NCBI GenBank assembly: GCA_964415615.1
Contig: CAYQAW010000001.1
Span: forward strand, 40,593 to 104,592
Origin: an uncultured Gammaproteobacteria bacterium
GTDB taxonomy: Bacteria > Patescibacteriota > Microgenomatia > Daviesbacterales > UBA10151
Reading direction: 5' to 3'
DNA length: 64,000 bases
The position numbers and the translations under genes are program-made. The notes below the pieces were generated by a model. That model saw nothing but the letters and a program-made list of their open reading frames with translations, searched no databases and had not been told where the DNA came from. Shown in pieces: positions 7,211 to 62,116 of this stretch. Every line of letters begins with the position of its first letter. The stretch's first letter is position 1.

Positions 7211-8760
7211 TAGTAATTTCTATAGATATAGAAGCTGGTAGTACCATCAGGTTCTGAGATACTTCTAGCTAACCGCAAGGAGGATATCTGTGTAGATAAA
7301 TTGCCTATATGATCAAAACGGGTAACAACGATGCTATTTGGATTAAACACTGCTTGGCCTAGTGTTAAAGGATCAAAGAAGAAGGTTTTGCTAAAAAGAT
7401 CCTCTCTATTATGTTTTATTAAATTAAACCGCCAATACCTATCCGTATAATAGTAAATTCTATTGTCAAAATAGATGGTCTTTGCAGATTTTATATTCTC
7501 CTCCGACAGTACCGCATCCTGCACCCCTAAAATATCGTAATCAAACCAAACATACGACCTTGTTCTATAATCGTTAAAATAATCATGCAAGAAAAAAGCA
7601 AATTGAATAGGAACTGAGATTATTAATATTAAAACTAAAATTTTAGCTAATTTATTGCGTGAGAATAACAAAAATTTAACTGCTGAGGTGGCCAGCAAAG
7701 CAGCAAAAGGTAAAATAAATAATTCCTTAGAAGCCCTATATTCGTTTCCTACTAAAGCTGCAGCGCTAGGAGCAGTAAAAAAGCCCATTATAAGCAGCAA
7801 ATTAAACCAGCCTCTTCTTTTGAAAGCCTGGTATATACCTAAAGGGAGCAATATCACAAATGGTAATAAGAAAACTCCAATTTTACCTGTAGAATGAATT
7901 AAACTAGAATCCCCTTTAAAAAATAAAAAAATTGGATCGAAATACTTAAGATAAACTACCACCATTTGAGTTATTCTTGCCGGCGTTAATAGCGTTATCA
8001 AACCTTCTAAAGGATTTAATTTTGTATTATATAATCCTGTATAACGTACTTGATCTGTCAAAGTATCAGGATATTGTGACAACCAAGGGATAAGAGGTAA
8101 CAACGGCAGAATAAAAGCCAATAAAGGAATCAATATTAAAGCCTTGCTTTTTTTATATCTAAGCGAAACAAGCCATAAAGTGAATAGTATATAAATTGGC
8201 ATAATCACCTTTGTTGCATGATAGCTATGTATACCTATACCTAATAAAAGTGTAGATAAAAATAAAAACCACAAGTTTTTTTTGGAAAAAAATAGATGAA
8301 TTAATACCATCCATCCTAATACAAAAGGTATGGGAAAAAGATTATCAAGTAAAATTCTACTCTGAATAAAGTGCACCGGGGTTAAGGCAAGAAAAAATGC
8401 GGCCAGTAAACCTAATTTTTCACTATCAAATATCCTCTTTGCTAAAAAATAAATTAGAATTATATTTAAAAGCCCTATCATAATGCTCGGCAATCTAATA
8501 GTTATTTCTGAAAGAGGTAATACTGTTAAAAAAAGGGCTGTTAGATATACAATTATTGGAGTGGCCCACATTACTCCAAGATGCCAAAAATACAGAGGGA
8601 AAAACCGGCCGTTCTCGTCAAAACCAGTTTTTGCAATCGAATAAGCATTTAAAGAAAAACCTAACTCATCCCGGTTAAGATGCACTGGAACTTTATCTAA
8701 AGAATAAGTATAAAAAAAACTAACTATTATCAGCAGTAAGATTATTTTAATTTTGCTCAT
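7210..8760 (-). CDS. GT-C fold membrane glycosyltransferase (GT39/ArnT/PMT-like)
   Basis: 516 aa and polytopic. The N-terminal loop DKVPVHLNRDELGFSLNAYSIAKTGFDENGRFFPLYFWHLG resembles polyprenyl-phosphate-sugar-dependent mannosyltransferases. Confidence 0.6.
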   Translation of the reverse strand: MSKIKIILLLIIVSFFYTYSLDKVPVHLNRDELGFSLNAYSIAKTGFDENGRFFPLYFWHLGVMWATPIIVYLTALFLTVLPLSEITIRLPSIMIGLLNIILIYFLAKRIFDSEKLGLLAAFFLALTPVHFIQSRILLDNLFPIPFVLGWMVLIHLFFSKKNLWFLFLSTLLLGIGIHSYHATKVIMPIYILFTLWLVSLRYKKSKALILIPLLAFILPLLPLIPWLSQYPDTLTDQVRYTGLYNTKLNPLEGLITLLTPARITQMVVVYLKYFDPIFLFFKGDSSLIHSTGKIGVFLLPFVILLPLGIYQAFKRRGWFNLLLIMGFFTAPSAAALVGNEYRASKELFILPFAALLATSAVKFLLFSRNKLAKILVLILIISVPIQFAFFLHDYFNDYRTRSYVWFDYDILGVQDAVLSEENIKSAKTIYFDNRIYYYTDRYWRFNLIKHNREDLFSKTFFFDPLTLGQAVFNPNSIVVTRFDHIGNLSTQISSLRLARSISEPDGTTSFYIYRNY

Positions 8761-11050: not shown

Positions 11051-11105
11051 TAAAATGCAGCTACGTAAAGTATATTATAATGAGAATCAATATACTAAAT
11101 AATTT

Positions 11106-12335
11106 ATGATTAAAAGGATTATTTTTTTGATTTCATTATTAAGATTCGCCTTTATTTTAGTTCCTAGTTTCAAAATAGATATGACAGATTGGCAGGCTTG
11201 GAGTGCCAGAATAGCAGAGGTTACTCCACTTCATTTCTACAACCCGAATTATTTCGCTGATTATTTTCCCGGATATCTCTATATGCTTTGGTTCTTAGGT
11301 AAGTCTTTCTATATTCTACTCCCGCATTTATCTGTATTTAGTATCGAATTCGAGATCTACTTAAAATTATTTACTAATCTATTTGATTTAGGAACTGCAT
11401 ACTATATTTATAAGATTGTTTACAGGTATCAACATAAATTTGCATTAATTGCTCCAATTTTTTATCTTGCTAATCCTGCTCTTGTTTTCAATTCTTCTGT
11501 TTGGGGACAAGTCGATGGGATTCTAGCATTTTTCCTAGTTTATTCTGCATATTGTTTAATAGAGCTCAAAAAAGCTTATCGTTCTAATTTCTTTTCGGCT
11601 TTGTCAATTATTATCAAACCTCAAGGATTAGCAATATTTCCAGTTATGATTATTTATCTTCTTTCGAATTTTAACTTCAAAAAGTACTTTAGTTTATTAA
11701 TAATCCCCGCTCTACTGATTCTCCTCTCTTTGCCGTTCTTTCTAAAAGATCCAATACTAGGACTCTTACATCTATTTCAAAAAAGCGCTAATACATATCC
11801 TTATACCTCAATGTTTTCCTATAACTTCTGGTCCTTTGCTGGATGGTGGAAACCAGACTCAACTAGATTTTTAGACCTTACTTTTCAAACCTGGGGAATA
11901 GCATTTTACCTAACATCATTAATCTTTATCTCGCTACCTTTAATTTTTAGAAGGAATCAGGATAACTTTTCTATATATTTTGCCTTGGCTTTAGCAAGCT
12001 TTGCATTTTTTCTATTCTTAACTAGAATTCACCAACGATATCTTTTTCCATTTTTTTCATTTCTATTAATCACCACTTTTATAAAAAACTCCTTGAAACT
12101 AAAAACTATTTATATTGCTCTTTCCTTAATCCATTTCATTAATCTGTGGTACGTTTATTATTACTATAATTATGTATATCTAAATCCTAAATTTTCATCT
12201 CTTTTAATTTACAAATTCTTAAGCGCAAACTATAATTTATTCACCCTGCTTAATTTGTTTGGTTTCGGATTATTGGTCTTGATATATTATAAAGCTGGAT
12301 ATACTAAGAAAAATCATGTTCAAAAAATTTCTTAA
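11106..12335 (+). CDS. membrane glycosyltransferase, DUF2029/GT87-like (mannosyltransferase-like)
   Basis: 409 aa and polytopic. Loop motifs MTDWQAWSARIAE and YNPNYFADYFPGYLY are typical of DUF2029 (PIG-M-like) GT-C enzymes. The family assignment is tentative. Confidence 0.45.
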   Translation: MIKRIIFLISLLRFAFILVPSFKIDMTDWQAWSARIAEVTPLHFYNPNYFADYFPGYLYMLWFLGKSFYILLPHLSVFSIEFEIYLKLFTNLFDLGTAYYIYKIVYRYQHKFALIAPIFYLANPALVFNSSVWGQVDGILAFFLVYSAYCLIELKKAYRSNFFSALSIIIKPQGLAIFPVMIIYLLSNFNFKKYFSLLIIPALLILLSLPFFLKDPILGLLHLFQKSANTYPYTSMFSYNFWSFAGWWKPDSTRFLDLTFQTWGIAFYLTSLIFISLPLIFRRNQDNFSIYFALALASFAFFLFLTRIHQRYLFPFFSFLLITTFIKNSLKLKTIYIALSLIHFINLWYVYYYYNYVYLNPKFSSLLIYKFLSANYNLFTLLNLFGFGLLVLIYYKAGYTKKNHVQKIS

Positions 12336-13530
12336 ACCAAGAAGTATTTTAATTACAATTTTAATTGTAACAGCTTTTCTTCGCTTGTACCGCCTGGATT
12401 ATCCAAATAAATATGTCTTTGATGAAGTTTACCATGCTTATACCGCTAAAGAATATTTAAAGGGTAACAAAGACGCCTGGAGCCCCTGGGGTAAATCACC
12501 GCCAGGCGTGGCTTTTGAATGGCTGCATCCACCTATTGCCAAAGAACTCATGACAGCTTCAATGTTTATCCTGCATAACACTGATGCTTGGGCTTATAGA
12601 TTACCAGGGGCTCTCTTAGGAATCTTATCAGTATTTTTAGTTTATAAATTAGCAATATTGCTTTTAAAAAACGAGACTGCTGCCTTACTGTCTGCTTTTA
12701 TTTTTTCCATTGACGGATTAGTCTTTGTCCAATCTAGAACTGCTATGAATGACGCTTATCTTGTAGCTTTTATTTTACTAAGTGTTATTTTTTTCGTAAA
12801 ACAAAGATATATTTTAGCAGCGGTTTTCATGGGTATATCTATGTCCACAAAGTGGACGGGAGTTTATTTAGTTCTTTTTTATTTACCAATTCTTTTATAT
12901 CAACGCCAGTTCAGTAAACTAAGCTATTTTATACTAATCCCTCCTATCATTTATTTCATAAGCTACATTCATTATTTTTTGATGGGTTATAATTTAAGTG
13001 ATTTACTCGAATTACACAAGCAAATTTGGTGGTATCAAACTCACTTAAAAGCAACACATGCTTATTCTTCTCCCTGGTGGTCATGGCCACTTAATTTATA
13101 TCCAGTTTGGTATTTCGTGGATTATCAAAAAAATAACATTGCTAATATCTTTGCCTCAGGCAATCCTGTTGTTTTTTGGGTAGGTAGCGCTACTGTAATA
13201 CTTACGATGATAGAAGCAATAAAGAAAAAAGCTTTAAATCTATTATTAATTTCATTGGGATTTATTGTCTTCTGGTTACCATGGGCGCTGTCTCCTAGAA
13301 TTATGTTCTTATATCATTTCAGTCCTTCTGTTCCATTTCTATCCCTTGCTTTGGGTCACCAGTTAAATTCAATTTTGAAGAACAAAGAAGAAAGGAAATT
13401 AGCTATAACTATTCTAATCCTGATAATATTAAGTTTTATTTTGCTCTTTCCATTTTTAACAGGAGTACCTATTCCAAGAAGTTTTGTTAAAATATTTTTC
13501 CTCTTTAATTTATCAAAAAATCCTTTTTAA
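12316..13530 (+). CDS. protein O-mannosyltransferase-like GT39 family membrane protein
   Basis: 404 aa. YVFDEVYHAYTAKEYLKG is the PMT/GT39 DE-motif loop (FDEVH). The protein is polytopic. Confidence 0.7.
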   Translation: MFKKFLKPRSILITILIVTAFLRLYRLDYPNKYVFDEVYHAYTAKEYLKGNKDAWSPWGKSPPGVAFEWLHPPIAKELMTASMFILHNTDAWAYRLPGALLGILSVFLVYKLAILLLKNETAALLSAFIFSIDGLVFVQSRTAMNDAYLVAFILLSVIFFVKQRYILAAVFMGISMSTKWTGVYLVLFYLPILLYQRQFSKLSYFILIPPIIYFISYIHYFLMGYNLSDLLELHKQIWWYQTHLKATHAYSSPWWSWPLNLYPVWYFVDYQKNNIANIFASGNPVVFWVGSATVILTMIEAIKKKALNLLLISLGFIVFWLPWALSPRIMFLYHFSPSVPFLSLALGHQLNSILKNKEERKLAITILILIILSFILLFPFLTGVPIPRSFVKIFFLFNLSKNPF

Positions 13531-48309: not shown

Positions 48310-51300
48310 CTAATTATCTACCTTTGCCCTCTCGTAACTTGTTGGAATCAAACGCCCAATTATAACATTTTCTTTGAGTCCTATTAATTTGTCATCTTTA
48401 CCAGACATCGCAGCATCTGAAAGTATTGATGTAGTTTCTTGGAATGAAGCTGCAGATAAGAAACTTTCTGTTTGCAAAGAAGCTCTAGTTATTCCTAATA
48501 TAACCACCTCTGCTGTGGCTGGTTCACCACCGCTTGCCAAAACCCGTCTATTTTCCTCTTCAAAACGGAGTTTGTCAATAATTTCACCAGGAAGCAAGTT
48601 AGTATCACCCTGGGTTTCTACTCTGACTTTATCAGACATCTTCCTGACAATCACCTCAAAATACTTCTCATTAATAGGCACACCCTGAGATTCATAAACA
48701 GATCTTACTTCATCAACTATGTAGCGTTGTGCAGCCTTCAAACCTTGAATTCTCAAAATTTCTTTGACATCCACATGCCCTGAAGCCAGCACTGTCCCAG
48801 CATCAATCAGTTGTCCTTCTTCTACTAGAAGGGCTGCAGTAGCAGGAATAATGTATTCCCTTTCTTCGTGTGGCTTTTGGGTAGTTTTAACCCTAACCCT
48901 TATCCCCAATTCAGTCTCAACGACTGAAACTTTACCAGCAATCTCAGACATTGGTGATGCAACTTTAGGGGTCCTGGCTTCAAATAACTCTTCTACTCTT
49001 GGTAAACCTTGGGTAATATCTAATCCGATAATCCCTCCTGTGTGGAAAGTACGCATAGTAAGCTGTGTGCCTGGCTCACCGATAGCTTGAGCAGCCACTA
49101 CTCCAACAGGGGTGCCAATTTTAACCAGTTGTCTAGTAGTCAAATCAAAACCATAACAAGCACTACAAATTCCATAACGGGCCTCACAAGTCAAAGGAGA
49201 ACGAGCTGATACTTTTACTACCCCTGCTTTTAGAATTTGAGTTATCGCCACTTCTGCTAGGATCGCACCCTTTTTGATAATTACTTTCCTGCTTTTAGGC
49301 TCTAATATATTCTCTGCAACAACTCTTCCCAGTAGCTTCTCTCTGGCGGTGGTAAAAACATCCTTTAAGATATCAAATTCCAAAAACAGTTCAGTTGCGC
49401 AATCTTCCATCCTGATAATAACATCATGAGCAACATCTACCAACCTTCTGGTCAAGTATCCTGCATCAGCTGTTTTCAAGGCTTTATCTGCTACACCTTT
49501 TCTGGCACCTCTGGCTGAAGTGAAGTATTCAAACACAGATAAACCTTGTCTGTAATTGGATTTCGTAGGCAATTCCACAATCTTACCGGTTGGATCAGTA
49601 GACAAACCCCGCATGGCAGAAAGTTGCTTTGCCTGATCTCTTGAACCTCTAGCGCCTGCTTCAACCATCATTCTGATAGGGTTTTTCATACCCAGATATT
49701 CCCAGGTAGCATTTGCCAACTCTTCTGTCACTTTAATCCAGACCATTTGTGAAAGCTGTGATTTTTCTTGTGGAGTAATTAAACCTTTGGCAGTATTTGC
49801 TTCAATTTTCTCGATTTCCTTTATAGCTCTATCCAAATAAGCCTGTTTATCAGATACAACTTTTGCATCAAAGATAGAAATTGAAATACCGGCAATAGTT
49901 GCCCCCCAGAAGCCAATAGTCTTAATATTATCTATCAGCTCTGTTGCCTTTTCCTTACCTAAAGTTTCCATTGCCCGCAGGATGATGTCACGGATAGTAA
50001 GCCCTTTAATAACTGAATTTATAAATTGCATCTCAGTAGGCAAAACTTGATTAAAAAGTATTCTACCTACCGATGTTTCTATAACTTCACCATTAATCCT
50101 GGTTTGGATTTTTTGTTGAATCCCAATTTTGCCTAAAGTATAAGCCCTAACTGCATCTTCTATGGGTGCAAAGAAGTGCAGTTTCTCACCTTCTGCAACA
50201 TCCTCAAACGAAGTCAAAAAATAACATCCCAAAGCCATTTCCCTATTTGGCACAGTCACTGGCTGAGCATTGGCTGGACTAAAAATATTTTCTCTTGCCA
50301 TCATTAAATTCTTTGCTTCCTCTTGGGCTTTCCCAGATAAAGGCACATGAACTGCCATCTGATCTCCATCAAAATCAGCATTAAATCCTGCGCAAATACA
50401 AGGATGAATAGCAATGGCATTACCATCAACCAGTATTGGGAAAAATGCTTGAATCCCTAATCTATGCAGTGTAGGAGCCCTGTTGATCAGAATTGGATGC
50501 CCTGTAATGATTTCCTCTAAAATATCCCAAACCTCAGAAGACCGAAGCTCCAAAACATTTTTTGCGCCTTTAACATTAGATGCCAAACCTCTGGCAATAA
50601 CTTCCCGCAAAACAAACGGCTTGAACATTTCAAGAGCCATTTCTTTTGGTAACCCGACTTGATCTAGTTTTAATTTTGATCCAACCACGATAACTGATCT
50701 TCCAGAATAATCTACCCTTTTGCCCAATAAATTCTGTCTGAATCTTCCCTGCTTACCCCGTAACATATCTGAGAGGGAACGGAGAATATGAGTAGTAGCA
50801 GGACCTCCCCGTCTTGAAGTCCTGGATGATGCATCTATCAAGCTATCAACAGCTTCTTGTAGCATTCTTTTTTCATTCCGCAAAATTATTTCTGGAGCAC
50901 CCAGATTAATTAGCCTGTTTAAGCGGTTATTTCTATTAATTACTCTTCTGTAAAGATCGTTTAAATCTGAGGTAGCAAATCTTCCTCCTGGCAGTTGCAC
51001 CATAGGTCGAAGGTCTGGGGGTAAAACTGGTAAAACCCGCAGTACTAACCATGCAGCAGAGATGCCAGAAGAACGCATTCCTTCAATCACCCGAAGTCTT
51101 TTTGTAGCCTTGATATGTTTTTGCCCTGTGGACTTTCTGACCTCTTCCCTCAAAGCTGCAGCCATTTTATCCAAATCTAGCTTTTGTAGAACTTCCAAAA
51201 ATGCTTCTGCTCCCATTCCTACCTGAAGAAAATCTGAAACTCCATATTCGAAAAGCTTTGAATATTCATCCTCTGATAGAAGTTTTAAAGCCACAACAGA

Positions 51301-52002
51301 TTTAACTAAATCAGATACAGCTTTAAAAATTCCTTCCAACTGACCAATTTCTACAACTAAATTATCTCTCAACTTTTGGATTTCATGTCTACCTTTTAAC
51401 TCTTTTTCCTGTGCCTCAAGTTCAAATTTTTCCTTTTCCAGTTTCTTTTTAAGACCAGTTACGTCCTTTTTGAGCTGACTTTCAAAATCTTTGATCGTCT
51501 TTTCCAAATTTTCTTTTGCTTGGGAAATTTTTGTTTGTAAATCTTTCTCTAATTTTTCCAGAGCTGCAGTTTTACCAGAGGGATCAATACTAATCACAAT
51601 ATAGGAAGCAAAATATATTACTGCTTCCAAATTTTTGGGTGAAATATCCAGTATCAGGGATAATTTGGAAGGCGCACCTTTGACAAACCAGCTATGAGCC
51701 ACAGGAGAGGCAAGATTAATATGGCCCATTCTTTCTCTTCTGACCTTGCTTTGGGTAACCTCAACTCCGCACTTATCACAAATTACTCCCCGGAATCTAA
51801 TTCTTTTATATTTACCGCAGTAACATTCATAATCTTTAGTAGGCCCAAAGATATTTTCAGAAAACAGTCCATCTTTTTCAGCTTTTAAAGTTCTATAATT
51901 GATAGTTTCTGGTTTTGTAACCTCACCAAAAGACCAATTCCTTATTTGCTCAGGAGAAGCAACTGTGAGTCTTAAACTTTCAAAATCTACTAAATCGTTC
52001 AT
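48310..52002 (-). CDS. rpoC: DNA-directed RNA polymerase subunit beta'
   Basis: 1230 aa. An N-terminal zinc finger and NADFDGDQM catalytic loop are present. Confidence 0.97.
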
Positions 52003-55000
52003 TCTGCCTCCTTTACTTCAAAAGAACTGTCAGGAGCTCCCAGCTCTTCTATACTAGCAGTTGATTTCATATCTAGTGCTTCTTCAAGCTGCGCTATTTC
52101 AGTAGTCACTTCTTTACTCTTCTCAGCCTCAGCGACCTCAGTCACTATTTTTGCTCCCAGTGTTTCAACATAAAGTCCCAAGGCTTGCAATTCTTTAACC
52201 AACACCTTAAAAGATTCAGGAATTAAAGCCTGGGGAATATCAATTCCCTTAACAATTGCCTCAAAAGCTTTAGCCCGTCCTACTACATCATCAGATTTTA
52301 TAGTTAACATTTCTTGTAAGATATGCGCAGCTCCATATGCCTCCAAAGCCCACACTTCCATCTCTCCTAATCTTTGCCCTCCCATTTGAGCTTTTCCTCC
52401 CAAAGGCTGTTGAGTAACCAACGAATAAGGACCGGTGGAACGGGCATGAATTTTTTCCTCCACCATGTGAATTAATTTCAGGATATAATTTATACCCACC
52501 ACTACACTGCTTCCAAAAGGTTCCCCTGTTCTTCCGTCAAAAAGTTGTGTCTTACCGTCAGTTGAATACCCTGCTCTTTTTAATTCTTCCATTAATCTCT
52601 CTTCAGGAATCTTTTCAAAAACTGGCGCAGCTATTTTATAACCCAATTGCTTAGCCGCAAATGCCCAGTGTGTTTCTAGTAATTGTCCTAAGTTCATCCT
52701 GGAAAGAACTGATAGAGGAGAGATAATAATATCTATCGGAGTTCCATCAGCCATGTGTGGCATATCTGCAATCGGCACAATTTTGGAAATAACTCCTTTA
52801 TTACCATGGCGGCCTGCCAGTTTATCTCCGGCAGTCACTTTTCGGAGTTGAGCAACTTTTACTTTAATTCTCTGAAGAGTTCCTGTATCAAGCTCGTCTC
52901 CGTCATCTCGGGAAAGTATCTGCACTCCAATGACAGTACCCCGCTCACCATGAGGAATACGTAATGATGTATCTCTGACTTCCTTGGCTTTTTCTCCAAA
53001 AATAGCCCTAAGTAATCTTTCTTCAGCAGTCAACTCTGTTTCACCTTTGGGCTGAACTTTACCAATCAATATATCATTTGGCCTCACTTCTGCCCCAACT
53101 CTAACAATTCCTTTCTCGTCCAAATTAACTAGCGCTTCTTCAGACACATTAGGAATATCCGAAGTTAACTCTTCTGGTCCAAGCTTGGTTTCTACAACAT
53201 CGACTTCATATTCTTCAATATGAATTGAAGTTAACGCATCATCTTTTACTAACCTGTCTGAGATAACAATAGCATCTTCATAACCTAAACCATCAAAGCT
53301 CATATAGGCAATAAGTAAATTTTGACCTAAAGCCAACTCCCCGTTCTCACAAGCTGCGCCATCAATCAAAAGATCGCCTTTTTTCACCTTTTCATCTACC
53401 CCAACTACTGGTGTTTGCGAATAACAAGTTCCTTGAGGAGAGTGGACAAATTTCTTGATTTCGTACTTGATTTCATCCTGCTTAGTTTTCAAAATGAGCT
53501 TTTTCCCATCTACATATTTTATAGTTCCATCTTCCGGAGCTCTAACAACCCTACCCATATTATCAGCTACAATTCTCTCCATACCTGTACCTGAAATTGG
53601 AGCTGTAGGTCTGAGTAAAGGCACTGCCTGACACTGCATTTGGCTACCCATCAAAGCTCTGTTTGCATCATCATTGGCCAAAAATGGAATCAAAGAGGCA
53701 GATGTACCAAAAATCTGCTGGGGTGAAATATCAATTAAGGAAATATCTTTTGCTGTTCCTTCAAAGAAATTACCCTGATATCGGGTTGGCACTCTTTCAT
53801 CTAGAATGAAACCCTTCTCATCGGTATTTACAGTAGCCTCAGTAATATGAAAGTCTTCCTCATCATCGCCTGTAAAATAAATAACTTCATCAGTCACTTG
53901 TGGCTTACCTTTTTGTAGAACTACTTTTCTATAAGGAGTCTCTAAAAACCCATACTCATTTATCCTGGCATAAAGCGCCAGATATGTAACTAGTCCAATA
54001 TTTTGACCTTCAGGAGACCTGATAGGATCAATCCTGCCATATTGAGAGTGATTAATATCGCGTACAGAAAAAGATGCCCTATCTCTGGTAATACCGCCTG
54101 CTCCCATCACAGAAAGTCTCCTTAAATGATCAAGTTCAGATAAAGGATTTACTTGATCTAAAATAGAAGACAGTTGAGAGGAACGGAAAAATTCATTAAT
54201 AGCAGCAATCACTGGCTTGGCATTAATTAAACCACCTGGAGTGACTTCCTGATCAGCTGCTGTCAAACTCATTCTTTCTTTAATAATACGCTCAAGTCTT
54301 AAAACTCCAATTCTGAAAGCATTTTGCTGAACCAACTCACCGGCGCATCTAACACGGCGGTTTGCCAAATGATCTATATCATCCAGTTTACCCTCACCTT
54401 TACTTAATTTAATTAAATATTTTAAAGTAGCAATAATATCTTCTTTGGTTAAAATCCAATTATCGGGGGTATTTGGTATATTCAGACCAAGCCTTTTATT
54501 TATTTTATATCTGCCTACTTTAATTAAGTTGTAACGCCTGGAATTAAAAAACATTCCATCAAGTAGAGCTTTTGCATTATCTAATACTACCGGATCTCCT
54601 GGACGCATCTTTCTAAAAATCTCCAGAAGCGCCTCGTCAGTGTTGGCAGTTGGATCTTTGACTAGAGTTGCATCGATAAATTTGTCTTCTCCATTATCAA
54701 CGTCTTTGAAAAGCTCTACGATTGATTCATTGTCAGAAAATCCTAGAGCCCGGAGTAATGTGGTTGCAGCGAATTTTCTTCTCCTGTCAATCTTAGCTGT
54801 CAAAACTCCACCGCGGGTTATAGAAAACTCCAGCCATGAACCACGGTAAGGACGGATCTCTGCAGAAAATAATCTCCTTCCGGTAATTGGATCATCAGAG
54901 GCTTGGAAAAACACTCCAGGAGAACGGACTAACTGATTAATGATAACTCTCTCAACCCCATTTACGATAAAAGTACCTTTATCTGTCATTTGGGGAATAT

Positions 55001-55340
55001 CACCCAGAAACACATCCTGTTTATATCTTTGTCCTGTTTGCTTATTAATCAGGATTGCTTCAATTTTTAGAGGAGCATCATAAGTAACGCCTTTTTCACG
55101 GGCGATTTCTGCTGTATTTTTAGATTTACCAAAATAAAAGGACCCTAGCTGCAGGGTCCAATTCTTTCCTGTAAAATCTTCCACTGGGGAGATTTCTTCA
55201 AGGACTTCACCAATTCCAGTTTTAAGAAACCAATTATATGAATCAAGTTGAATTTGAATTAAATTAAGTTCTGGAACCAACGCTGGTGCTTTGCTCCAAT
55301 ATTTACGGTTATCTTTTGTATTAGATACGTTCAGTGACAT
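51999..55340 (-). CDS. rpoB: DNA-directed RNA polymerase subunit beta
   Basis: 1113 aa with conserved beta-subunit motifs throughout. It overlaps rpoC by 4 nt. Confidence 0.97.
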   Translation of the reverse strand: MSLNVSNTKDNRKYWSKAPALVPELNLIQIQLDSYNWFLKTGIGEVLEEISPVEDFTGKNWTLQLGSFYFGKSKNTAEIAREKGVTYDAPLKIEAILINKQTGQRYKQDVFLGDIPQMTDKGTFIVNGVERVIINQLVRSPGVFFQASDDPITGRRLFSAEIRPYRGSWLEFSITRGGVLTAKIDRRRKFAATTLLRALGFSDNESIVELFKDVDNGEDKFIDATLVKDPTANTDEALLEIFRKMRPGDPVVLDNAKALLDGMFFNSRRYNLIKVGRYKINKRLGLNIPNTPDNWILTKEDIIATLKYLIKLSKGEGKLDDIDHLANRRVRCAGELVQQNAFRIGVLRLERIIKERMSLTAADQEVTPGGLINAKPVIAAINEFFRSSQLSSILDQVNPLSELDHLRRLSVMGAGGITRDRASFSVRDINHSQYGRIDPIRSPEGQNIGLVTYLALYARINEYGFLETPYRKVVLQKGKPQVTDEVIYFTGDDEEDFHITEATVNTDEKGFILDERVPTRYQGNFFEGTAKDISLIDISPQQIFGTSASLIPFLANDDANRALMGSQMQCQAVPLLRPTAPISGTGMERIVADNMGRVVRAPEDGTIKYVDGKKLILKTKQDEIKYEIKKFVHSPQGTCYSQTPVVGVDEKVKKGDLLIDGAACENGELALGQNLLIAYMSFDGLGYEDAIVISDRLVKDDALTSIHIEEYEVDVVETKLGPEELTSDIPNVSEEALVNLDEKGIVRVGAEVRPNDILIGKVQPKGETELTAEERLLRAIFGEKAKEVRDTSLRIPHGERGTVIGVQILSRDDGDELDTGTLQRIKVKVAQLRKVTAGDKLAGRHGNKGVISKIVPIADMPHMADGTPIDIIISPLSVLSRMNLGQLLETHWAFAAKQLGYKIAAPVFEKIPEERLMEELKRAGYSTDGKTQLFDGRTGEPFGSSVVVGINYILKLIHMVEEKIHARSTGPYSLVTQQPLGGKAQMGGQRLGEMEVWALEAYGAAHILQEMLTIKSDDVVGRAKAFEAIVKGIDIPQALIPESFKVLVKELQALGLYVETLGAKIVTEVAEAEKSKEVTTEIAQLEEALDMKSTASIEELGAPDSSFEVKEAE

Positions 55341-55929: not shown

Positions 55930-56292
55930 TTAAATTAGTCCAAAATATTTTTTGGCTTCCTGCTCATCTTTTTTCATTTGTTTTATTAACTCCTCAGCAG
56001 AATTAAATTTTTGATTGTTTCTGATTTTTTTTATTAGACTAACAGAAATCCATTTACCATAGATATCTTTATTAAAATCCAATATAAAAGTTTCTGCAAG
56101 GAATTTTTTCTCATTAAAAGTTTTAGCCATGCCAATAAAAGTAAGTGAAGGGTATAAAACACCGTTTAGTTTAGTTTTGGAAATATATATTCCTACAGAA
56201 ATATCTTTTGTTAAATTAACATTAGCTGTAGGAAACCCTAATTTTTTTCCCCTCTGATTATGTTTTCTTACCTTCCCCCAAAATTTATTCAT
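55930..56292 (-). CDS. riboflavin kinase domain protein (stand-alone RFK, RibF C-terminal-like)
   Basis: 120 aa. GKKLGFPTANVNL is the RFK PTAN motif. Confidence 0.7.
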   Translation of the reverse strand: MNKFWGKVRKHNQRGKKLGFPTANVNLTKDISVGIYISKTKLNGVLYPSLTFIGMAKTFNEKKFLAETFILDFNKDIYGKWISVSLIKKIRNNQKFNSAEELIKQMKKDEQEAKKYFGLI

Positions 56293-57254
56293 GGGTTATT
56301 GGCTACATTTTGATTATGTTCTTCTAAAGTTTTGCCGTAATATGAGTTGCCTTTTGAGTCATGGTAATAATATAAATAAGGGGTGTTTAAATCAGCATTG
56401 GCCACAGCTTCAAGCGAGGCTAAACCAGGATTGGAAATTGGGGTTGGAGGCAAACCAGCATGCAAGTAAGTATTATATGGCGAGTCAACTTGAAAATCAT
56501 CTTTACTCAAATTCCTTTTCCACCAGCTTTTTTCCTGAAGTTGATACCCTAAAGCATATTGAATTGTAGCATCTGCATTCAGTCCCATATCTATTTTTAA
56601 TCTTTTAAGCAGAATGCTTGCTATTTCTGTTCTTACCTTTGCAGACCTTGCTTCCCGTTCAACAATAGAAGCTAAAATAATCCCTTGAGTCTCAGTAAGC
56701 CCTTTGGAACGGATTTGGGAACGCAAAGCGTCTGTAAAACGGTTATCAAAAGTTTTTCTCAAAGTATCAGTTATATATCCTACTGAAGCCTCTTTAGGAA
56801 AAAGGTATGTATCAGGAAACATGTAACCTTCTTTTGCCAATTCCAAAAATTTTGAATTTTGAATTTTGAATTTTGAATTTAATTCTTCTGCCATTTCTTC
56901 AACACGCCAACCCTCTATTAAAGTAACCCAAATATCCTCACTGCCTGTTTTCAAAGTTTTTACCAATTCCTGCACAGACATAGAAGGAGAAAGCTTAAAT
57001 GAACCTGCCTGAAGCTTATCTGTCAAATTATTTTGTTTGATATAAATCTTAAAAGCTAATTCTGATTTGATAAGATTATCTTCCTTTAACTTTTTAGCAA
57101 TTCCAGATACCCCGGTGCCTTTTTCAATTACAAAAACCTTAGTTGATTTATCAGAAGATACAGATCCCAATTGGCCATTCCACCAATTTTTACTTAAAAA
57201 AAATATAGCCATCAAAAAAATAAAAAACCAGATTATCCTTTTCATTTTTTTCAT
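56289..57254 (-). CDS. mltG: endolytic murein transglycosylase MltG (YceG family)
   Basis: N-terminal TM, then the EGYMFPDTYLFPKEAS (YceG) motif and C-terminal YYYHDSKGNSYYGKTLEEH. It contains a (TTTGAAT)4 tandem repeat. Confidence 0.8.
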   Translation of the reverse strand: MKKMKRIIWFFIFLMAIFFLSKNWWNGQLGSVSSDKSTKVFVIEKGTGVSGIAKKLKEDNLIKSELAFKIYIKQNNLTDKLQAGSFKLSPSMSVQELVKTLKTGSEDIWVTLIEGWRVEEMAEELNSKFKIQNSKFLELAKEGYMFPDTYLFPKEASVGYITDTLRKTFDNRFTDALRSQIRSKGLTETQGIILASIVEREARSAKVRTEIASILLKRLKIDMGLNADATIQYALGYQLQEKSWWKRNLSKDDFQVDSPYNTYLHAGLPPTPISNPGLASLEAVANADLNTPYLYYYHDSKGNSYYGKTLEEHNQNVANNP

Positions 57255-57628
57255 ATATTATCTAAATAATTTTGTAATATTTCTGCAGCTGAAAAATCAT
57301 CTTCATAACGGCGTTTTTTTCTTCCTCTGCCTTGGTCAATCATTGCCTGTAAAGCTTTTTTACTAGATAATGTCTCATCAGCAGTTACTACATCAAATCT
57401 CATTTTTTTTAAGGCATTAATAAATCCAGTCACATTTTTGCCCATTTTTCCTTCTGGTAAACCTACAACTATTTTTTGAAATCCACCATCTTTTATCACT
57501 TGTGAAGTTTTTTCTACAGCATCAGAAAAATTTTTAACCTCTATAATCTGCCAGGGGGAAACAAATTCACCTTCTGATATAGCCAAACCAATTCTTCTTT
57601 GACCAAAATCTACTCCTAAATACTTCAT
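57251..57628 (-). CDS. ruvX: putative pre-16S rRNA nuclease / Holliday junction resolvase-like RuvX (YqgF)
   Basis: MKYLGVDFGQRRIGLAISEGEFVSPWQIIEV. Confidence 0.85.
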   Translation of the reverse strand: MKYLGVDFGQRRIGLAISEGEFVSPWQIIEVKNFSDAVEKTSQVIKDGGFQKIVVGLPEGKMGKNVTGFINALKKMRFDVVTADETLSSKKALQAMIDQGRGRKKRRYEDDFSAAEILQNYLDNI

Positions 57629-58266
57629 ATCATCTTACCCAAAACTACTAATCTCTTAAGATTTAAACCAGGTGGCACACAAGTCATCAAAGAAATATAT
57701 CTTCCCTGATCTTCTGGTGATTGCAATACTGATAAATCTGAAGGATCAACTATTTTAAATCCAACAACTTCATAAATAAATTTTGTTCCAGGAGTTTCGA
57801 TAATTATTTGATCTCCTTTTTTTAAATCAGGTAATTTAGAAAAAGGCACACTCTTTACTGCAAGAAATTGGCTTAAAGCAGAATGACCGGAAATAAATAA
57901 ATTACCCTTTTCTCCTGGCAAAGCAGAACCAGGAAGTTGGGCTAAGCCTTTTGATAAATCGTTAGTATCCACAAAGACATCTGTTTTATTTATTTTAAGA
58001 GCTGGAATAGACAAGTTAAACCTATCATAATTAGGCTGAGTTTCGCGTTTAAGAGAAGAAATAAATGCAGAAAAACTATCTTTATTTTGAACTGAAATCC
58101 CTAAAACTTCTTTCGTTGATTTTATAGGACTGATTAAAATCTGGTTCTGATATTGTTGTCCTAGCTGCCAAATTTGGAATGATATTACTGGTAAAATTAC
58201 CTGCATCAGAATAAAAACCCCAATCGCTAAAAATCCTACAGAGATAAATTTTGAGATGGCTATCAT
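57625..58266 (-). CDS. sortase family transpeptidase
   Basis: N-terminal TM, an active-site-like His (ISGHSALSQF) and the TLxTC catalytic Cys motif (ISLMTCVPPG). Confidence 0.7.
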   Translation of the reverse strand: MIAISKFISVGFLAIGVFILMQVILPVISFQIWQLGQQYQNQILISPIKSTKEVLGISVQNKDSFSAFISSLKRETQPNYDRFNLSIPALKINKTDVFVDTNDLSKGLAQLPGSALPGEKGNLFISGHSALSQFLAVKSVPFSKLPDLKKGDQIIIETPGTKFIYEVVGFKIVDPSDLSVLQSPEDQGRYISLMTCVPPGLNLKRLVVLGKMI

Positions 58267-60431
58267 TTCAATCCTACCTCAATTTTGATGTTTTTTATCA
58301 AAAGAGGCAGACGCGATAAAGGTTTTGGCAAATTTGGAGTCAAACTGATTTCAGAACTTAAAATATTATCCATACCTTTTAATATGTCCGTAACCTGATC
58401 CGGAGTCTTAAATTTAATTTGATTTTTAATCTTATCTGTATCAATCTTAGGTATAAACTTTGCTTTGAATTTTGCTAAAAATATTAATTTCCCATCCTTC
58501 TCTAGTTTAGAAATATCTGCTTGTGTCTCAGTTGCTGAAAGGTCAAGCGTAAAACCATCAGGTACTTGCAAATTAACTAGCTTTGAAACAATAGTTCGCA
58601 GATCAGTGTCATCAAAAGCTGTTCCTTTATAATCTACAGCTAGATTAAGAGAAAACTCACTTGCCTGGTCATTAATATTTTTGCTGTAACTCTTTCTAGT
58701 AATACTCTCTAATAAAGCCTCCTCCAGAATTTTTTTGTTAGGATATTTATCCTGTAATTTTTGCTGTGCTTGTTGTCTTAAGTCAGAAGATAATTTAGCA
58801 AGAAGTTTTTGCTGATCTTCGCTTGATACAACAGTAACATCTTTCGAGGTGCCTCCAGAAAAATTACCCTGGGTCTTACCAACAAACTGATCAGCTGTAA
58901 ATTTACCAATTGTTAATTTAGTCTCAGAGGGAATATTACCGTCAGCTCCAATCGCAACTGCAGTTGCTTGCGCTGTCACTGTACTCTTTGAAGCAGAGTC
59001 TGAAAGTGTTGCTGAAACAGAAGCAGTATTATCTAATTTGAACTTAATACCCCCTGAAGAGATCAATGTTGTCCCTGCTGAAAAATTTTGCCCTTGGGCA
59101 GTATTGTTGATAATTACTACTGTTCCTTTAGCAGGATCACCAATTTGTCTTTTGCCAGAAGCTGTATCTTTTGCCGATCCTGATACTTCTATCTCTACCA
59201 TCTGTCCCGGGATTATCTTATTATTCTCATCCACCGTCTTTTGACCCGGATCTGCCACCACCTGGGCATCTTTTTCTATAATCTTTGGCTCAACAAATAT
59301 TTTGATATCTGCTTTAACCAGTAAAAAATAGGCGATTGCAAATAAAACAACTACACCAAACACAACAATTGGAATTAGTTTTCTAAAACTAAATTTTGGT
59401 TTCAGTTTTTTTTCATTAGCAACTGGTTGCCCCAAATCCCTTTCAAAATCATCAATTTCTAAAGGAGGCTGCTGGAAAGATGCAATGTTTGATTCTTCTG
59501 GTATAACCTCATCTTCAGAAACTTCATCTTTCTCTACATCGCCAACTACAAATCCAAAATTATCTTCTGTTTCTAGCACTTGTTCCTTTGGGGTATCTTT
59601 TTCTACTTCCGTTTCCTCTATGGCTACTTTCTCTATATGTTTTTCTACTTCGTGGTCCGAATATGAAATATTTCCATTTATTTCTGACCCCCCAGCCAAA
59701 CAAATACTTTTAATTTCCAAATCCTGACCTAATTCATCTATTTTAGGAAGATGCAAAAAAGAGAGTTTTGACATCCAGGCAAAGGATGATAGTTGGCTTT
59801 TTAATCCGCCAGTCCCGATTGAATCGGGGCCAGCTGACGGACCATAGATTAAAATCTTAGAAGGCAAAGTCTCAATATCTGTAAAAGTAAGCAAAGCTTT
59901 CTCAATGTCTGTTCCAGAACTTTCGCCTCTTTTGATTACTTTTACCCCGTCCAATTTACCAGCCCTTACTATTGTCACTGTCAAGTGTAGTTTTTGAAAA
60001 CCTACTAATATTGCAGTTGTGGGAATACCATCTTGTTTTTCTAAAAAGTGAATTAATGCATTACTAGTTGACACATAAGCCATCGGAGTAAGCTCTAATT
60101 CTTTAACAAAACTACGCAGTATTTTTAAATATTCATCTTTTAGGCTATCATCGGATAACCAGGAAGCAGGCACCCCAAAAAGAATTTTTTGAGGCTCAAT
60201 CTCTTTTAACCCCAAGACCTGATCAAGTAATTTATCAGACACAGCAATAATCTCATCATTTGATGAGTAGGCCTCGGAAGCTGTACTCAAAATCTTAAGC
60301 TGTCTGCCTTCAACAGTCCACAGAGCTGCTGTTAAACTGTCTGTTCCAATGTTAATGGCAAAAAAATATTCTAACTCTTGCGCCTTTTTTCCAAACGGCA
60401 AAAAGGCAGTCACTTTGTCAAGGAAACTCAT
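58263..60431 (-). CDS. bitopic membrane protein with an N-terminal actin-like ATPase (FtsA/PilM-like) domain, one TM and a large extracytoplasmic C-terminal domain
   Basis: 722 aa. FAINIGTDSLTAALWTVEG (phosphate-1-like) and ICLAGGSE (adenosine-motif-like) are present, then an acidic linker, a TM (LIPIVVFGVVVLFAIAYFLLV) and about 350 aa of Ser/Thr-rich extracytoplasmic sequence. There is a 4-nt overlap with the sortase gene. Confidence 0.45.
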   Translation of the reverse strand: MSFLDKVTAFLPFGKKAQELEYFFAINIGTDSLTAALWTVEGRQLKILSTASEAYSSNDEIIAVSDKLLDQVLGLKEIEPQKILFGVPASWLSDDSLKDEYLKILRSFVKELELTPMAYVSTSNALIHFLEKQDGIPTTAILVGFQKLHLTVTIVRAGKLDGVKVIKRGESSGTDIEKALLTFTDIETLPSKILIYGPSAGPDSIGTGGLKSQLSSFAWMSKLSFLHLPKIDELGQDLEIKSICLAGGSEINGNISYSDHEVEKHIEKVAIEETEVEKDTPKEQVLETEDNFGFVVGDVEKDEVSEDEVIPEESNIASFQQPPLEIDDFERDLGQPVANEKKLKPKFSFRKLIPIVVFGVVVLFAIAYFLLVKADIKIFVEPKIIEKDAQVVADPGQKTVDENNKIIPGQMVEIEVSGSAKDTASGKRQIGDPAKGTVVIINNTAQGQNFSAGTTLISSGGIKFKLDNTASVSATLSDSASKSTVTAQATAVAIGADGNIPSETKLTIGKFTADQFVGKTQGNFSGGTSKDVTVVSSEDQQKLLAKLSSDLRQQAQQKLQDKYPNKKILEEALLESITRKSYSKNINDQASEFSLNLAVDYKGTAFDDTDLRTIVSKLVNLQVPDGFTLDLSATETQADISKLEKDGKLIFLAKFKAKFIPKIDTDKIKNQIKFKTPDQVTDILKGMDNILSSEISLTPNLPKPLSRLPLLIKNIKIEVGLK

Positions 60432-60439
60432 ATGAGTTG

Positions 60440-62116
60440 TTATCGTACTACAATTTCCGCTCTAATTCTACGGATACCAGCAGAAACCGCTTCTTCTTTA
60501 GTAATTGTTATCCTATCAATCACGCCAGTATGCTCAACATGTGGTCCGCCACAAAACTCCAAAGAATAATATCCACCATCTCTTGGTCCTATTCCATAAA
60601 TACTTACCTCAATACCATATTTCTCATTAAACAAACCAATAGCGCCCATTTCTTTTGCTTCTTCTAAGGAGACTATTTTATGCTCAACTGTCAGATCTTC
60701 TTTTATTTTTTTATTAACAATATCTTCCACTTGTTTTATTTCTTCAGGGGTCATTTTTCTATCAAAGGAAAAATCAAATCTAAGTCTTTCAGCGGTGATA
60801 TTGGATCCTTTTTGGAAAACCTGTGGACCTAAAACATCCCTTAAAGCCTGATGCAATAGGTGAGTAGCTGTGTGATATTTGGTTACTATTTCAGAATGAT
60901 CTGCCAGCCCCCCTTTGAACATCCCAGCAGAAGCTGTTCTAGACAACTCCCTGTGTTTCTCAAATTCTAGTCTAAATTGCTCCTTGTTAATCTCTTGTCC
61001 TTTTTGTCTAAATAATTCTTCTGTTACCTCATAAGGAAAACCAAAAGTCTGATACAGGTCAAAAGCCTTTTTCCCATCAATAGCAGCAATTTTCTCAATC
61101 TCCCTAAACCCACGATCTAAAGTTTTACCAAACTTTCGCGTCTCATCTTGAACTTCCTTCACAGCAATAATTGAACCTAAAGCCACATTTTTATTAAGCA
61201 TCCGCAGTTTTACAGCCGATCTTCTTAATAACCTTCTTAAGGTATATCCTTGTAATTTGTTAGAGGGAATAACCCCGTCTGCTATCAAAGCAACCGAAGC
61301 CCTCATATGATCAGCGATGACTTGCATGGGTGCTTTATATTCTTCATAGCCTTTATCGGTCACTTCTTCTATGGTGTGAATAATTTCTGTATATAAATCT
61401 GTTTTAAAAATATCCTGCTGGTTTAATGTTGCAGCTGTTAATCTTTCTAAACCTCCACCAAAATCTACATTTTTTTGAGCCAATTCTTTTAAAGATCCGT
61501 CTTCCTGCTTTTGATATTGAATAAAAACAGAATTACCAATTTCCAATAAATTCCCGTTGTCAAATTTATAGAAGACTTCCGAATCTGGACCGCCAATTTC
61601 ACCAACCGGCATCTTATCTGGAAGGCCTGAACGGGACCACCAATTTTCATTGACCCCATTAAAGAAAATCTGATCCTCTGCTACCCCTAAACTCTTCCAT
61701 ATTTCATAAGATTCAGTGTCCTTTGGTACATCTTCACTGCCTTCAAATACAGATACATATAATTTCTCTTTGGGTAGTCCTAGTTCTTTTGTAAAGAATT
61801 CCCATATCCAGGGTAATTGCTCTTTTTTAAAATAATCTCCCAAAGACCAGTTGCCTAACATTTCAAAAAAAGTAGTATGTCTGCTGTCTCCCACTTCTTC
61901 AATATCTTCTGCCCTAAAAGAAGGTTGAGAATCAACTAATCTCTTACCAGCAGGGTGGGTTTGCCCTAAAAGATAGGGGACTAAAGGCTGCATCCCAGAG
62001 GAAGTAAAAAGGGTAGAAGGATCATTTTCCGGCACCAATTTAGCTGGAGCAATTTCCTTATGTCCGCGACTTACAAAAAACTTAATATATTTTTCTCTAA
62101 TATCTTTAGAAGTCAT
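60440..62116 (-). CDS. alaS: alanine--tRNA ligase, short form (catalytic, tRNA-recognition and editing domains; no C-Ala domain)
   Basis: 558 aa. IREKYIKFFVSRGHKEIAPAKLVPENDPSTLFTSSGMQPL and the editing-domain HTATHLLHQALRDVLG...CGGPHVEHTG are present. Confidence 0.85.
   Translation of the reverse strand: MTSKDIREKYIKFFVSRGHKEIAPAKLVPENDPSTLFTSSGMQPLVPYLLGQTHPAGKRLVDSQPSFRAEDIEEVGDSRHTTFFEMLGNWSLGDYFKKEQLPWIWEFFTKELGLPKEKLYVSVFEGSEDVPKDTESYEIWKSLGVAEDQIFFNGVNENWWSRSGLPDKMPVGEIGGPDSEVFYKFDNGNLLEIGNSVFIQYQKQEDGSLKELAQKNVDFGGGLERLTAATLNQQDIFKTDLYTEIIHTIEEVTDKGYEEYKAPMQVIADHMRASVALIADGVIPSNKLQGYTLRRLLRRSAVKLRMLNKNVALGSIIAVKEVQDETRKFGKTLDRGFREIEKIAAIDGKKAFDLYQTFGFPYEVTEELFRQKGQEINKEQFRLEFEKHRELSRTASAGMFKGGLADHSEIVTKYHTATHLLHQALRDVLGPQVFQKGSNITAERLRFDFSFDRKMTPEEIKQVEDIVNKKIKEDLTVEHKIVSLEEAKEMGAIGLFNEKYGIEVSIYGIGPRDGGYYSLEFCGGPHVEHTGVIDRITITKEEAVSAGIRRIRAEIVVR

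Follow-up and report, generated by a model that had tools for sequence, protein, structure and literature searches.

A Membrane-Anchored Baseplate J/gp47 Homolog with an Actin-Like Cytoplasmic Domain Is Paired with a Sortase in Microgenomates

We analyzed a 64,000-nucleotide stretch of DNA (hereafter the window) from an uncultured, groundwater-type bacterium (Candidatus Daviesbacteria) that encodes a 722-residue membrane protein, which we call X, immediately followed by a sortase. This locus is a conserved operon segment of Microgenomates, and its two membrane-anchored products most likely function as a pair in the cell envelope. X joins a minimal cytoplasmic domain of the actin-like ASKHA fold to an ectodomain that is a complete homolog of J/gp47, a baseplate wedge protein in contractile phage tails and tailocins. 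We infer, with a probability of roughly 0.4, that X serves as a transmembrane scaffold through which a partner in the cytoplasm is connected with an extracellular platform that works with the sortase.

The minus-strand gene order is alaS, X, sortase, ruvX, and mltG (table 1), and the open reading frames together with Pfam and NCBIfam models confirm the layout and flanking genes given in the original prediction. The end of alaS lies 8 nt upstream of X, the stop of X and the start of the sortase gene overlap by 4 nt, and overlaps of the same length are found at the sortase/ruvX and ruvX/mltG junctions. Judged from the overlap, the sortase gene is predicted to be translationally coupled to X. A promoter-like site precedes alaS (62151–62123), and from alaS to the flavokinase gene none of the gene boundaries is marked by a terminator-like site. 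The sole minus-strand terminator candidate in that interval is a weak stem of 6 pairs within X (60267–60252).

Table 1. Features of the locus encoding X and the sortase, in coordinates of the window.
Feature	Position	Strand	Basis
Gene X, 722-aa bitopic membrane protein	58263..60431	-	ORF listing; NCBI name "baseplate J/gp47 family protein", Ca. Daviesbacteria
X aa 20-252, cytoplasmic domain with a minimal ASKHA (actin-like) fold, resembling FtsA/PilM in predicted structure, nucleotide-binding motifs degenerate	59676..60374	-	
X aa 219-230, W-x5-F-L-H-x-P-K motif	59742..59777	-	Conservation in 126 homologs
X aa 263-351, disordered acidic linker, K/R-rich juxtamembrane end	59379..59645	-	pLDDT <50, composition
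X aa 290-299, linker motif (D/E)(D/E)-h-G-F-V-x-x-D-(I/V)	59535..59564	-	Conservation in 126 homologs
X aa 352-373, single transmembrane helix, N-in/C-out	59313..59378	-	Hydrophobic 22-mer; AlphaFold helix
X aa 374-722, extracytoplasmic baseplate wedge protein J/gp47 homolog	58266..59312	-	Pfam, PHROG, PDB profile, Foldseek
Sortase, 213 aa, N-terminal membrane anchor, H128/C196/R205	57625..58266	-	ORF listing; Pfam Sortase, TIGR01076
alaS in its 558-aa short form, heading the putative operon	60440..62116	-	NF002436 615 bits; Pfam tRNA-synt_2c
ruvX (yqgF)	57251..57628	-	Pfam RuvX E 4.9e-24
mltG (YceG-like endolytic transglycosylase)	56289..57254	-	Pfam YceG E 2e-78; TIGR00247 217 bits

The pair had been described as inserted into an alaS–ruvX–mltG neighborhood. 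Gene neighborhoods in relatives reveal a class-wide conserved operon segment and not a recent insertion; the arrangement of X and sortase is ancestral and conserved within Microgenomates and can be called inserted only relative to other phyla. The order FtsK, RodZ-like protein, AlaS, X, sortase is kept in Daviesbacteria, Gottesmanbacteria, Amesbacteria, and Shapirobacteria, and X is also carried by Woesebacteria. Across the class, the gene order and the two-domain architecture of X, with many invariant residues, are retained down to approximately 26% identity. The sortase is encoded directly downstream of X in approximately 69 of 76 species loci, which span 25–75% identity in X and form a sample biased toward one exact motif, having been found with 23 sequences that share FLHFPKIE. 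The pair is intact in Gottesmanbacteria, where a 419-aa gene occupies the place of ruvX, and remains together elsewhere when a radical-SAM gene has been inserted. This persistent adjacency makes the functional pairing with the sortase that was originally proposed plausible, the proposed inside/outside topology is plausible as well, and the conservation and synteny of the pair across the class imply an important function. In a Daviesbacteria subclade (seven loci), ruvX comes immediately after X and the sortase gene is missing from between them; given that these X proteins keep all of the family's invariants, an adjacent sortase is not required by X. FtsK, the RodZ-like protein, and MltG are conserved neighbors that provide an envelope context. 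Given that alaS–ruvX–mltG is an old housekeeping synteny, these three genes may lack a functional link to X.

A protein 100% identical to X is present in the databases, and at 50% identity the representatives of the family number 7484 for E ≤ 1e-3 and 1713 for E ≤ 1e-30. Database labels for X are merely "hypothetical" or "baseplate J/gp47 family." We found no paper or curated family that describes the architecture of X, and our literature searches on baseplate J in CPR/Patescibacteria or in association with a sortase, and on alaS/ruvX/mltG, returned nothing relevant. A paper on the CPR "Pam" pilus mentions a sortase in its introduction only and is unrelated.

Several comparisons identify the ectodomain as a J/gp47 homolog. 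The Pfam model Baseplate_J (PF04865) matches residues 428–528 with 24.2 bits (cutoff 21.1) and matches 53 of 65 X homologs at E ≤ 1, and three of the six proteins tested match the PHROG family of baseplate wedge subunits (phrog_6). A profile search of the PDB retrieves diffocin TRI-2 at an E value of 4e-4, with the IGxxxNL and FxGGT motifs aligned. Foldseek searches of the PDB and BFVD align 340–360 columns with phage J proteins of 350–400 residues, a correspondence over essentially the whole length of those proteins. A tblastn search of the ectodomain against 50,697 phage records yielded no match, and no contractile-tail genes are found beside X, which occupies a housekeeping setting in all loci. 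The ectodomain had been described as Ser/Thr-rich; its Ser/Thr content is 16.9% compared with 16.4% in the N-terminal domain, and it is instead a folded Baseplate_J-like domain. The C-terminus of X is modeled by AlphaFold as a buried β-strand (residues 715–721, pLDDT >90). X lacks an LPxTG-like sorting signal, in agreement with the original view that it is not a canonical sortase substrate.

The AlphaFold model of full-length X, built from a 126-sequence alignment at approximately 30% identity, has a mean pLDDT of 88. (An earlier model of the N-terminal domain from a shallow set of 20 Daviesbacteria sequences reached a pLDDT of 56 and was left out of the fold searches.) In the predicted structure the cytoplasmic domain has the two-lobe ASKHA fold, and FtsA and PilM are its nearest solved structures, so the actin fold proposed earlier is borne out at the level of structure; the domain was matched by no sequence profile in Pfam or NCBIfam searches of the query, in a Pfam search of 65 homologs, or in phmmer and profile searches of the PDB. 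The structural alignment covers only ~211 of the 330–380 residues of the FtsA and PilM targets. Lobe I (residues 21–134) and lobe II (residues 140–251) are each modeled as the core β-β-β-α-β-α-β-α succession, which leaves no space for the 1C (SHS2) or 2B subdomains of FtsA, and both are absent from the model.

The original prediction called this domain ATPase-like. AINIGTDS, one of the two motifs cited for it, does fall at the phosphate-1 hairpin; the Asp expected there is Asn in this X and is unconserved in the family, where among 126 homologs the position is E in 38%, N in 14%, Q in 9%, and L in 7% and the Gly is present in just 26%. The same homologs contain no phosphate-2 DxGGG, and the loop that follows β5 is variable. 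The second motif, LAGGSE, lies within the last helix of the fold, not in the adenosine loop, and we rejected its conserved AGG as an adenosine motif because of this position in the terminal helix. The alignment thus shows degenerate residues across the family at phosphate 1 (DxG), phosphate 2 (DxGGG), and the adenosine site (GG), and the ATPase-like label is not supported. Within the cytoplasmic domain, the motif with the highest conservation is instead W-x5-F-L-H-x-P-K, just ahead of lobe II strand β5 (W219 98%, F225 99%, L226 94%, H227 100%, P229 100%, and K230 91% in 126 diverse homologs), which is also kept in the clade without an adjacent sortase. Given that canonical nucleotide-binding residues are not conserved and noncanonical motifs are nearly invariant, the best reading is that X would act as a scaffold rather than as an enzyme.

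A linker of approximately 90 residues, variable in sequence and length between homologs, connects the cytoplasmic domain to the membrane. It has pLDDT values below 50 throughout, and its composition is 33% D/E, turning to 40% K/R in the stretch before the transmembrane segment. Within the otherwise unalignable linker, one motif is conserved among the 126 homologs (G293 93%, F294 97%, and D298 84%); it is not docked onto the actin-fold domain in the AlphaFold model. The transmembrane segment is a hydrophobic 22-mer that follows KKLKPKFSFRK and is modeled as a helix at residues 353–371. The K/R-rich stretch ahead of this single segment indicates an N-in/C-out topology.

The assignment of the downstream gene as a sortase, including the TLxTC cysteine, proved correct. 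The protein matches Pfam Sortase (E value 9.4e-21, 74.3 bits, cutoff 26.6) and TIGR01076 (65.5 bits, cutoff 39.35), and it contains one histidine (H128), one cysteine (C196, in LMTCVPPG), and R205, each 99% conserved among 70 X-adjacent sortase orthologs. In the same 70 proteins, G16, P26, and P47 of the anchor and stalk are 100% conserved. In the PDB, the protein is most similar to sortases of class C (E value 2e-13). The class-specific NCBIfam cutoffs are all missed (class C, 75 vs. 160; class E, 63 vs. 160; class D, 55 vs. 165; class F, 16 vs. 166), and the DP[FWY] lid motif is absent. By these comparisons the sortase is placed outside every curated class with its predicted His-Cys-Arg triad intact. 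A sortase family has been reported to be near-ubiquitous in Microgenomates (PMC6744442). When the 64-kb window was scanned with loose criteria for C-terminal sorting signals, nothing convincing emerged; the scan flagged two ordinary membrane proteins, one YfhO-like and the other an AI-2E transporter, and both were rejected as substrates.

For the scaffold reading we propose the following mechanism. The actin-fold domain would be a nucleotide-independent docking or oligomerization module, comparable with PilM, the cytoplasmic domain of GspL, and FtsA with their partners. Like wedge proteins in a baseplate, the J-like ectodomain may oligomerize, here on the external side of the membrane, and the resulting platform could position the sortase or its substrates for linkage to peptidoglycan or to one another. 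A cytoplasmic cue, for instance from the division, elongation, or pilus machinery, would thereby be coupled to surface assembly. A more ambitious version, which we regard as doubtful, is that X and the sortase are the core of a hitherto unrecognized, Microgenomates-wide envelope machine, in which a domesticated phage baseplate wedge protein forms a ring or platform on the membrane's outer face, a nucleotide-independent actin-fold domain wires it to the cytoplasm, and a dedicated, new sortase class builds or anchors a surface structure, for example for host-cell attachment.

Alternatively, X could itself be a division or elongation protein of Microgenomates, either a membrane-spanning FtsA-like tether or an FtsQ/DivIB-type connector acting with FtsK, RodZ, and MltG, with the sortase a mere neighbor. 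We consider this unlikely: in addition to lacking the 1C and 2B subdomains, X shows no match to the Pfam models FtsA or SHS2_FTSA at E ≤ 1 in 65 diverse homologs, ftsZ is not adjacent to X, the ectodomain is unrelated to POTRA/FtsQ, and the tight, persistent coupling with the sortase would be left unexplained. The possibility that X is a GspL- or PilM–PilN-type assembly platform of a pilus or secretion machine, with an actin-fold domain that recruits an ATPase and a sortase that anchors or polymerizes the fiber, is less probable still. The approximately 85 neighborhoods, in which alaS and the sortase are the neighbors of X, contain no pilin, PilB/C/T, or secretin genes and show no association with pilN/pilO; PilM_2 finds no match in the same 65 homologs, and the sortase has neither the lid motif nor the model score of class C. 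Moreover, the ectodomain is not ferredoxin-like, in contrast to PilN, PilO, and GspL, and the FtsQ/PilN-like character suggested for it in the original prediction is not upheld.

Translational coupling and co-conservation of the two genes would also be expected if X were the catalytic partner of the sortase, either as an unconventional substrate or as the acceptor to which it joins other proteins, giving a covalently built surface structure on a baseplate-like foundation. A candidate residue is position 428, adjoining Gly-rich motifs, which is Lys in 92% of homologs and Arg in the window. We nevertheless hold this to be very unlikely given that X has no C-terminal sorting signal and ends in a buried strand and that the conserved ectodomain motifs are generic to Baseplate_J, being common to diffocin TRI-2, and are thus not specific to X. 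Finally, the J-like part might be what is left of a prophage, a tailocin, or an extracellular contractile injection system, in a fusion that is fortuitous or decaying. This idea is effectively refuted: sheath, tube, spike, and other tail genes are absent nearby, X sits in a housekeeping operon with a G+C content equal to that of its neighbors, the complete architecture and its invariants persist at the divergence noted above, and the search of phage records was empty.

Within the Candidate Phyla Radiation, Microgenomates form a large group of uncultured bacteria whose envelope and host-interaction biology is hardly known, and the gene pair offers a testable way into the surface organization of these bacteria. 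The locus pairs X with a sortase lineage beyond the curated classes. Like the class C and E sortases of Gram-positive bacteria, the X-adjacent sortase has the sortase fold, the His-Cys-Arg triad, and an N-terminal anchor; it differs in scoring below the class cutoffs, in lacking the class C lid, in its invariant G16, P26, and P47, and in being paired with X, not with pilins, and without an adjacent substrate gene.

Compared with FtsA and PilM, which have 330–420 residues, the corresponding domain of X has approximately 235 and appears to represent a minimal version that has lost the canonical ATP site; it lacks the additional subdomains and similarity at the level of HMMs, has neither ftsZ nor pilNO as a gene neighbor, and forms a fusion with a large extracellular domain. 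The overall plan of an actin-like domain, one transmembrane segment, and an extracytoplasmic domain is common to X and to GspL/EpsL of type II secretion, a PilM–PilN fusion, and to BfpC-type bitopic proteins. The cytoplasmic domain of GspL is reported to be a docking site for an ATPase and not an ATPase itself. GspL and PilM–PilN have a ferredoxin-like periplasmic domain, whereas that of X is J-like, and no T2SS or T4P genes adjoin X. The closest counterpart of the ectodomain is the baseplate wedge J family (P2 gpJ, Mu gp47, the T4 gp6 core, diffocin TRI-2, and T6SS TssF relatives), with which it shares the Pfam domain, the IGxxxNL and FxGGT motifs, and a nearly full-length fold, although sequence similarity between X and phage proteins lies below tblastn detection and genes for a triplex partner (gpI/gp48/TssG-like), sheath, tube, or hub are absent near X. 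In contrast to members of that family, the J-like domain of X is tethered to the outside of the cytoplasmic membrane and joined to an actin fold, and it would exemplify a phage baseplate wedge protein recruited to a cellular, membrane-anchored, extracellular role.

The source genome of the window is a Candidatus Daviesbacteria (CPR, Microgenomates), and the 722-aa membrane protein encoded downstream of alaS, hereafter X, matches, at 100% identity, an NCBI entry of Candidatus Daviesbacteria annotated as "baseplate J/gp47 family protein". The original prediction placed two genes, those of X and a sortase, between alaS and ruvX, and the ORF coordinates and flanking genes agree with that layout (table below). 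A 4-nt overlap joins X to the sortase gene, the sortase gene to ruvX, ruvX to mltG, and mltG to the flavokinase gene. The alaS gene stops 8 nt short of X, a promoter-like site lies immediately 5' of alaS, no terminator-like site matches any gene boundary from alaS to the flavokinase gene (the sole minus-strand candidate, at 60267-60252, is a weak 6-pair stem within X), and the G+C content of the locus is the same as that of neighboring genes; these features bear out the observation, and the genes have the appearance of a single operon.

Features of the window around the gene for X, with a glycosyltransferase cluster elsewhere in the window
Feature	Coordinates	Strand	Remarks
RodZ-like HTH_25 protein, 212 aa	63192-63830	-	N-terminal HTH_25 (RodZ-type) and C-terminal Glucodextran_B-like beta domain
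Membrane protein, 97 aa	62873-63166	-	
Hypothetical protein, 242 aa	62148-62876	-	no Pfam match
alaS	60440-62116	-	
X	58263-60431	-	
Sortase	57625-58266	-	
ruvX	57251-57628	-	
mltG	56289-57254	-	
Riboflavin-kinase domain protein (flavokinase)	55930-56292	-	
ORF, 107 aa	55478-55801	-	no family match, Pfam included
rpoB	51999-55340	-	
rpoC	48310-52002	-	
PMT-type cluster	7210-13530	both	

Several features of the surrounding genes deserve mention in their own right. The RodZ-like protein is encoded between ftsK and alaS across Microgenomates (the window and the related loci L001-L006 and L086), and a gene for a small membrane protein of ~90-120 aa usually comes next. AlaS is short, at 558 aa in the window and just 444 aa in L086 (4646-5980); its C-terminal part appears reduced in the Microgenomates-type genomes considered here, since the best match of the short form is the NF002436 model (595 aa) and not the ~870-aa canonical enzyme. 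The membrane-anchored 242-aa protein, with its Cys-rich C-terminus, and the 107-aa ORF share the terminal peptide QILSTFKFT, so that these two operon-flanking proteins may have a domain in common or stem from a partial duplication. The PMT-type cluster, composed of genes for three membrane glycosyltransferases (dolichyl-phosphate-mannose protein mannosyltransferase-like), a YfhO-like protein, and a 409-aa protein without a family match, suggests surface glycosylation.

Searching 1.84 billion representatives with a profile yields 7484 clusters at E<=1e-3, of which 1713 reach E<=1e-30; the top 150 matches are mostly 650-830 aa and cover both domains, with shorter ones that look like fragments from short contigs, with ~30% identity in either domain. 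Scanning one genome per species with the motif FLHFPKIE gave 80 loci, whose named taxa are all Microgenomates (Daviesbacteria, Gottesmanbacteria, Amesbacteria, Shapirobacteria) or unclassified Patescibacteria, and a homology search from a divergent X member added Woesebacteria. In these loci alaS immediately precedes X, and in ~69 of the 76 whose flanks are long enough the sortase gene immediately follows it (a scripted count of 67 plus L007 and L013, missed only through split HSPs). The order FtsK, RodZ-like, AlaS, X, sortase, RuvX, MltG, RpoB is kept even at 26-29% identity, and the X-sortase pair is intact where the next gene changes: a gene for a 419-aa protein occupies the ruvX position after the sortase in Gottesmanbacteria (L056, 6925-8184), and in one lineage (L002/L003, 8822-10648, minus strand) an inserted, oppositely oriented gene, whose 608-aa product matches radical-SAM weakly, separates sortase and ruvX. 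The arrangement is ancestral within Microgenomates; given this conserved synteny, the earlier description of the pair as inserted holds only when other phyla are the reference. In Bacillus, the order is presumably alaS-ruvX-mltG. A Microgenomates-type locus with the same synteny also occurs in many MAG records that bear the label "uncultured Gammaproteobacteria" or "Pseudomonadales" (among them L007-L010, L017, L021, L022 [a ~1.0 Mb contig], L025, L028, L030, and L031), and these taxon names are probably wrong. Downstream of mltG, L086 (10963-14100 and beyond) encodes a single 2333-aa product with RpoB and RpoC Pfam domains, which points to either fused rpoB and rpoC genes or an overlooked stop codon in this lineage.

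No actin-like match to the N-terminal domain of X was found in Pfam, NCBIfam, PDB phmmer, or PDB profile searches, nor in individual scans of 65 homologues at ~30% identity. An AlphaFold model built from an alignment of 126 diverse homologues (mean pLDDT 88, >95 in both folded domains) folds residues ~21-251 into two repeats of beta-beta-beta-alpha-beta-alpha-beta-alpha, an ASKHA core with no inserted subdomains. Foldseek reports generic ASKHA similarity to ROK, Ppx/GppA, PilM, and EutJ (E ~1e-7), and in the structure comparison FtsA/PilM lead the other ASKHA families by only ~2 Z units, with Hsp70, EutJ, actin, and E. coli FtsA ranking next (~14.7). The modeled fold is thus actin-like with FtsA/PilM closest, and the original prediction withstood the refutation proposed for it. 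An ATPase-like character of the domain is not supported, as the phosphate-1, phosphate-2, and adenosine positions are degenerate across the family: the phosphate-1 Asp is replaced by Asn in X (family: E 38%, N 14%, Q 9%, L 7%), the Gly after it is only 26% conserved, the DxGGG phosphate-2 motif is absent, and the loop following strand b5 is variable. The predicted LAGGSE motif is present; it sits within the last modeled helix (residues 238-251), by inference the "connect 2" helix and not the adenosine loop. Near-invariant positions are W219-x5-F-L-H227-x-P229-K230, P190, and G158. We infer that this domain may be a nucleotide-independent interaction module.

The linker (residues 263-351) is disordered, 33% acidic, and alignable only at a short motif, (D/E)(D/E)-h-G293-F294-V-x-x-D298-(I/V). 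The K/R-rich stretch preceding the single TM helix (352-373) gives an N-in/C-out topology. The ectodomain, earlier called Ser/Thr-rich, is not unusually so (16.9% versus 16.4% in the N-terminal domain). It scores above the Pfam Baseplate_J cutoff, and 53 of 65 homologues match the same model; phrog_6 ("baseplate wedge subunit", PHROG) matches three of six proteins tested; a PDB search with the family profile picks out diffocin TRI-2 (E 4e-4), aligned across the conserved G-x-V, IGxxxNL, and FxGGT motifs; and Foldseek alignments to entire phage J proteins, which are 350-400 aa long, span 340-360 columns. We identify the ectodomain as a complete homologue of baseplate wedge J/gp47, remote in sequence from phage J given that tblastn against 50,697 phage records gives no match.

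The sortase assignment and its TLxTC cysteine (LMTCVPPG) are upheld by HMM scores (Pfam Sortase E 9.4e-21; TIGR01076 above cutoff) and a conserved triad, H128, C196, and R205, each 99% conserved among 70 X-adjacent orthologues. Scores against all class-specific NCBIfam models fall far below the cutoffs (class C 75 versus 160, class E 63 versus 160). The closest solved structures are class C sortases (E 2e-13); the protein has no DP[FWY], the lid motif of class C. By sequence it is a true sortase, predicted to be active, of a lineage outside the curated classes, and it may be the family described as near-ubiquitous in Microgenomates (Meheust et al., PMC6744442). Full conservation (100%) in the same set is seen at two positions of the membrane anchor, G16 and P26, and at P47 of the stalk, as strong as that of the triad and unlike the variable TM helix of X; such invariance may reflect a specific contact within or next to the membrane.

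With the topology, folds, and homologies of X, its degenerate ATP site, the intact sortase triad, and the tight, deep conservation of the gene pair established, we tentatively favor (probability roughly 0.4) X as a transmembrane scaffold. Its actin-fold domain would dock to or oligomerize with a cytoplasmic partner, as do PilM, the GspL cytoplasmic domain, or FtsA, its J-like ectodomain would oligomerize in the manner of wedge proteins, and the sortase would attach its substrates on or beside this platform. A main weakness of the scaffold reading is a Daviesbacteria subclade of seven loci (L043, L047, L048, L049, L054, L082, L085) in which X is followed directly by ruvX, with no intervening sortase, and retains all 50-odd conserved positions; alaS is inverted in each except L048, where it is undetected. 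One Gottesmanbacteria contig also lacks an adjacent sortase. X might instead serve in division or elongation without involvement of the sortase, which we consider unlikely; we are more skeptical of a GspL/PilMN-type pilus or secretion platform, and X as a substrate or acceptor of its neighboring sortase is quite improbable. A prophage or tailocin relic hardly merits consideration. The ectodomain, a Baseplate_J superfamily member by both HMM and fold, belongs to no contractile tail.

In papers, Pfam, and NCBIfam we found no entry describing the X fusion or its N-terminal domain. We rate X and the sortase as a new arrangement built from known parts, and see a real, if modest, chance that they mark a new kind of envelope machine. 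X differs from FtsA/PilM in that it does not match their HMMs, lacks the 1C and 2B subdomains as well as the ATP motifs, and lies in another genomic context; its closest working likeness is a membrane-tethered actin-fold scaffold of the GspL/PilM-PilN or FtsA type.
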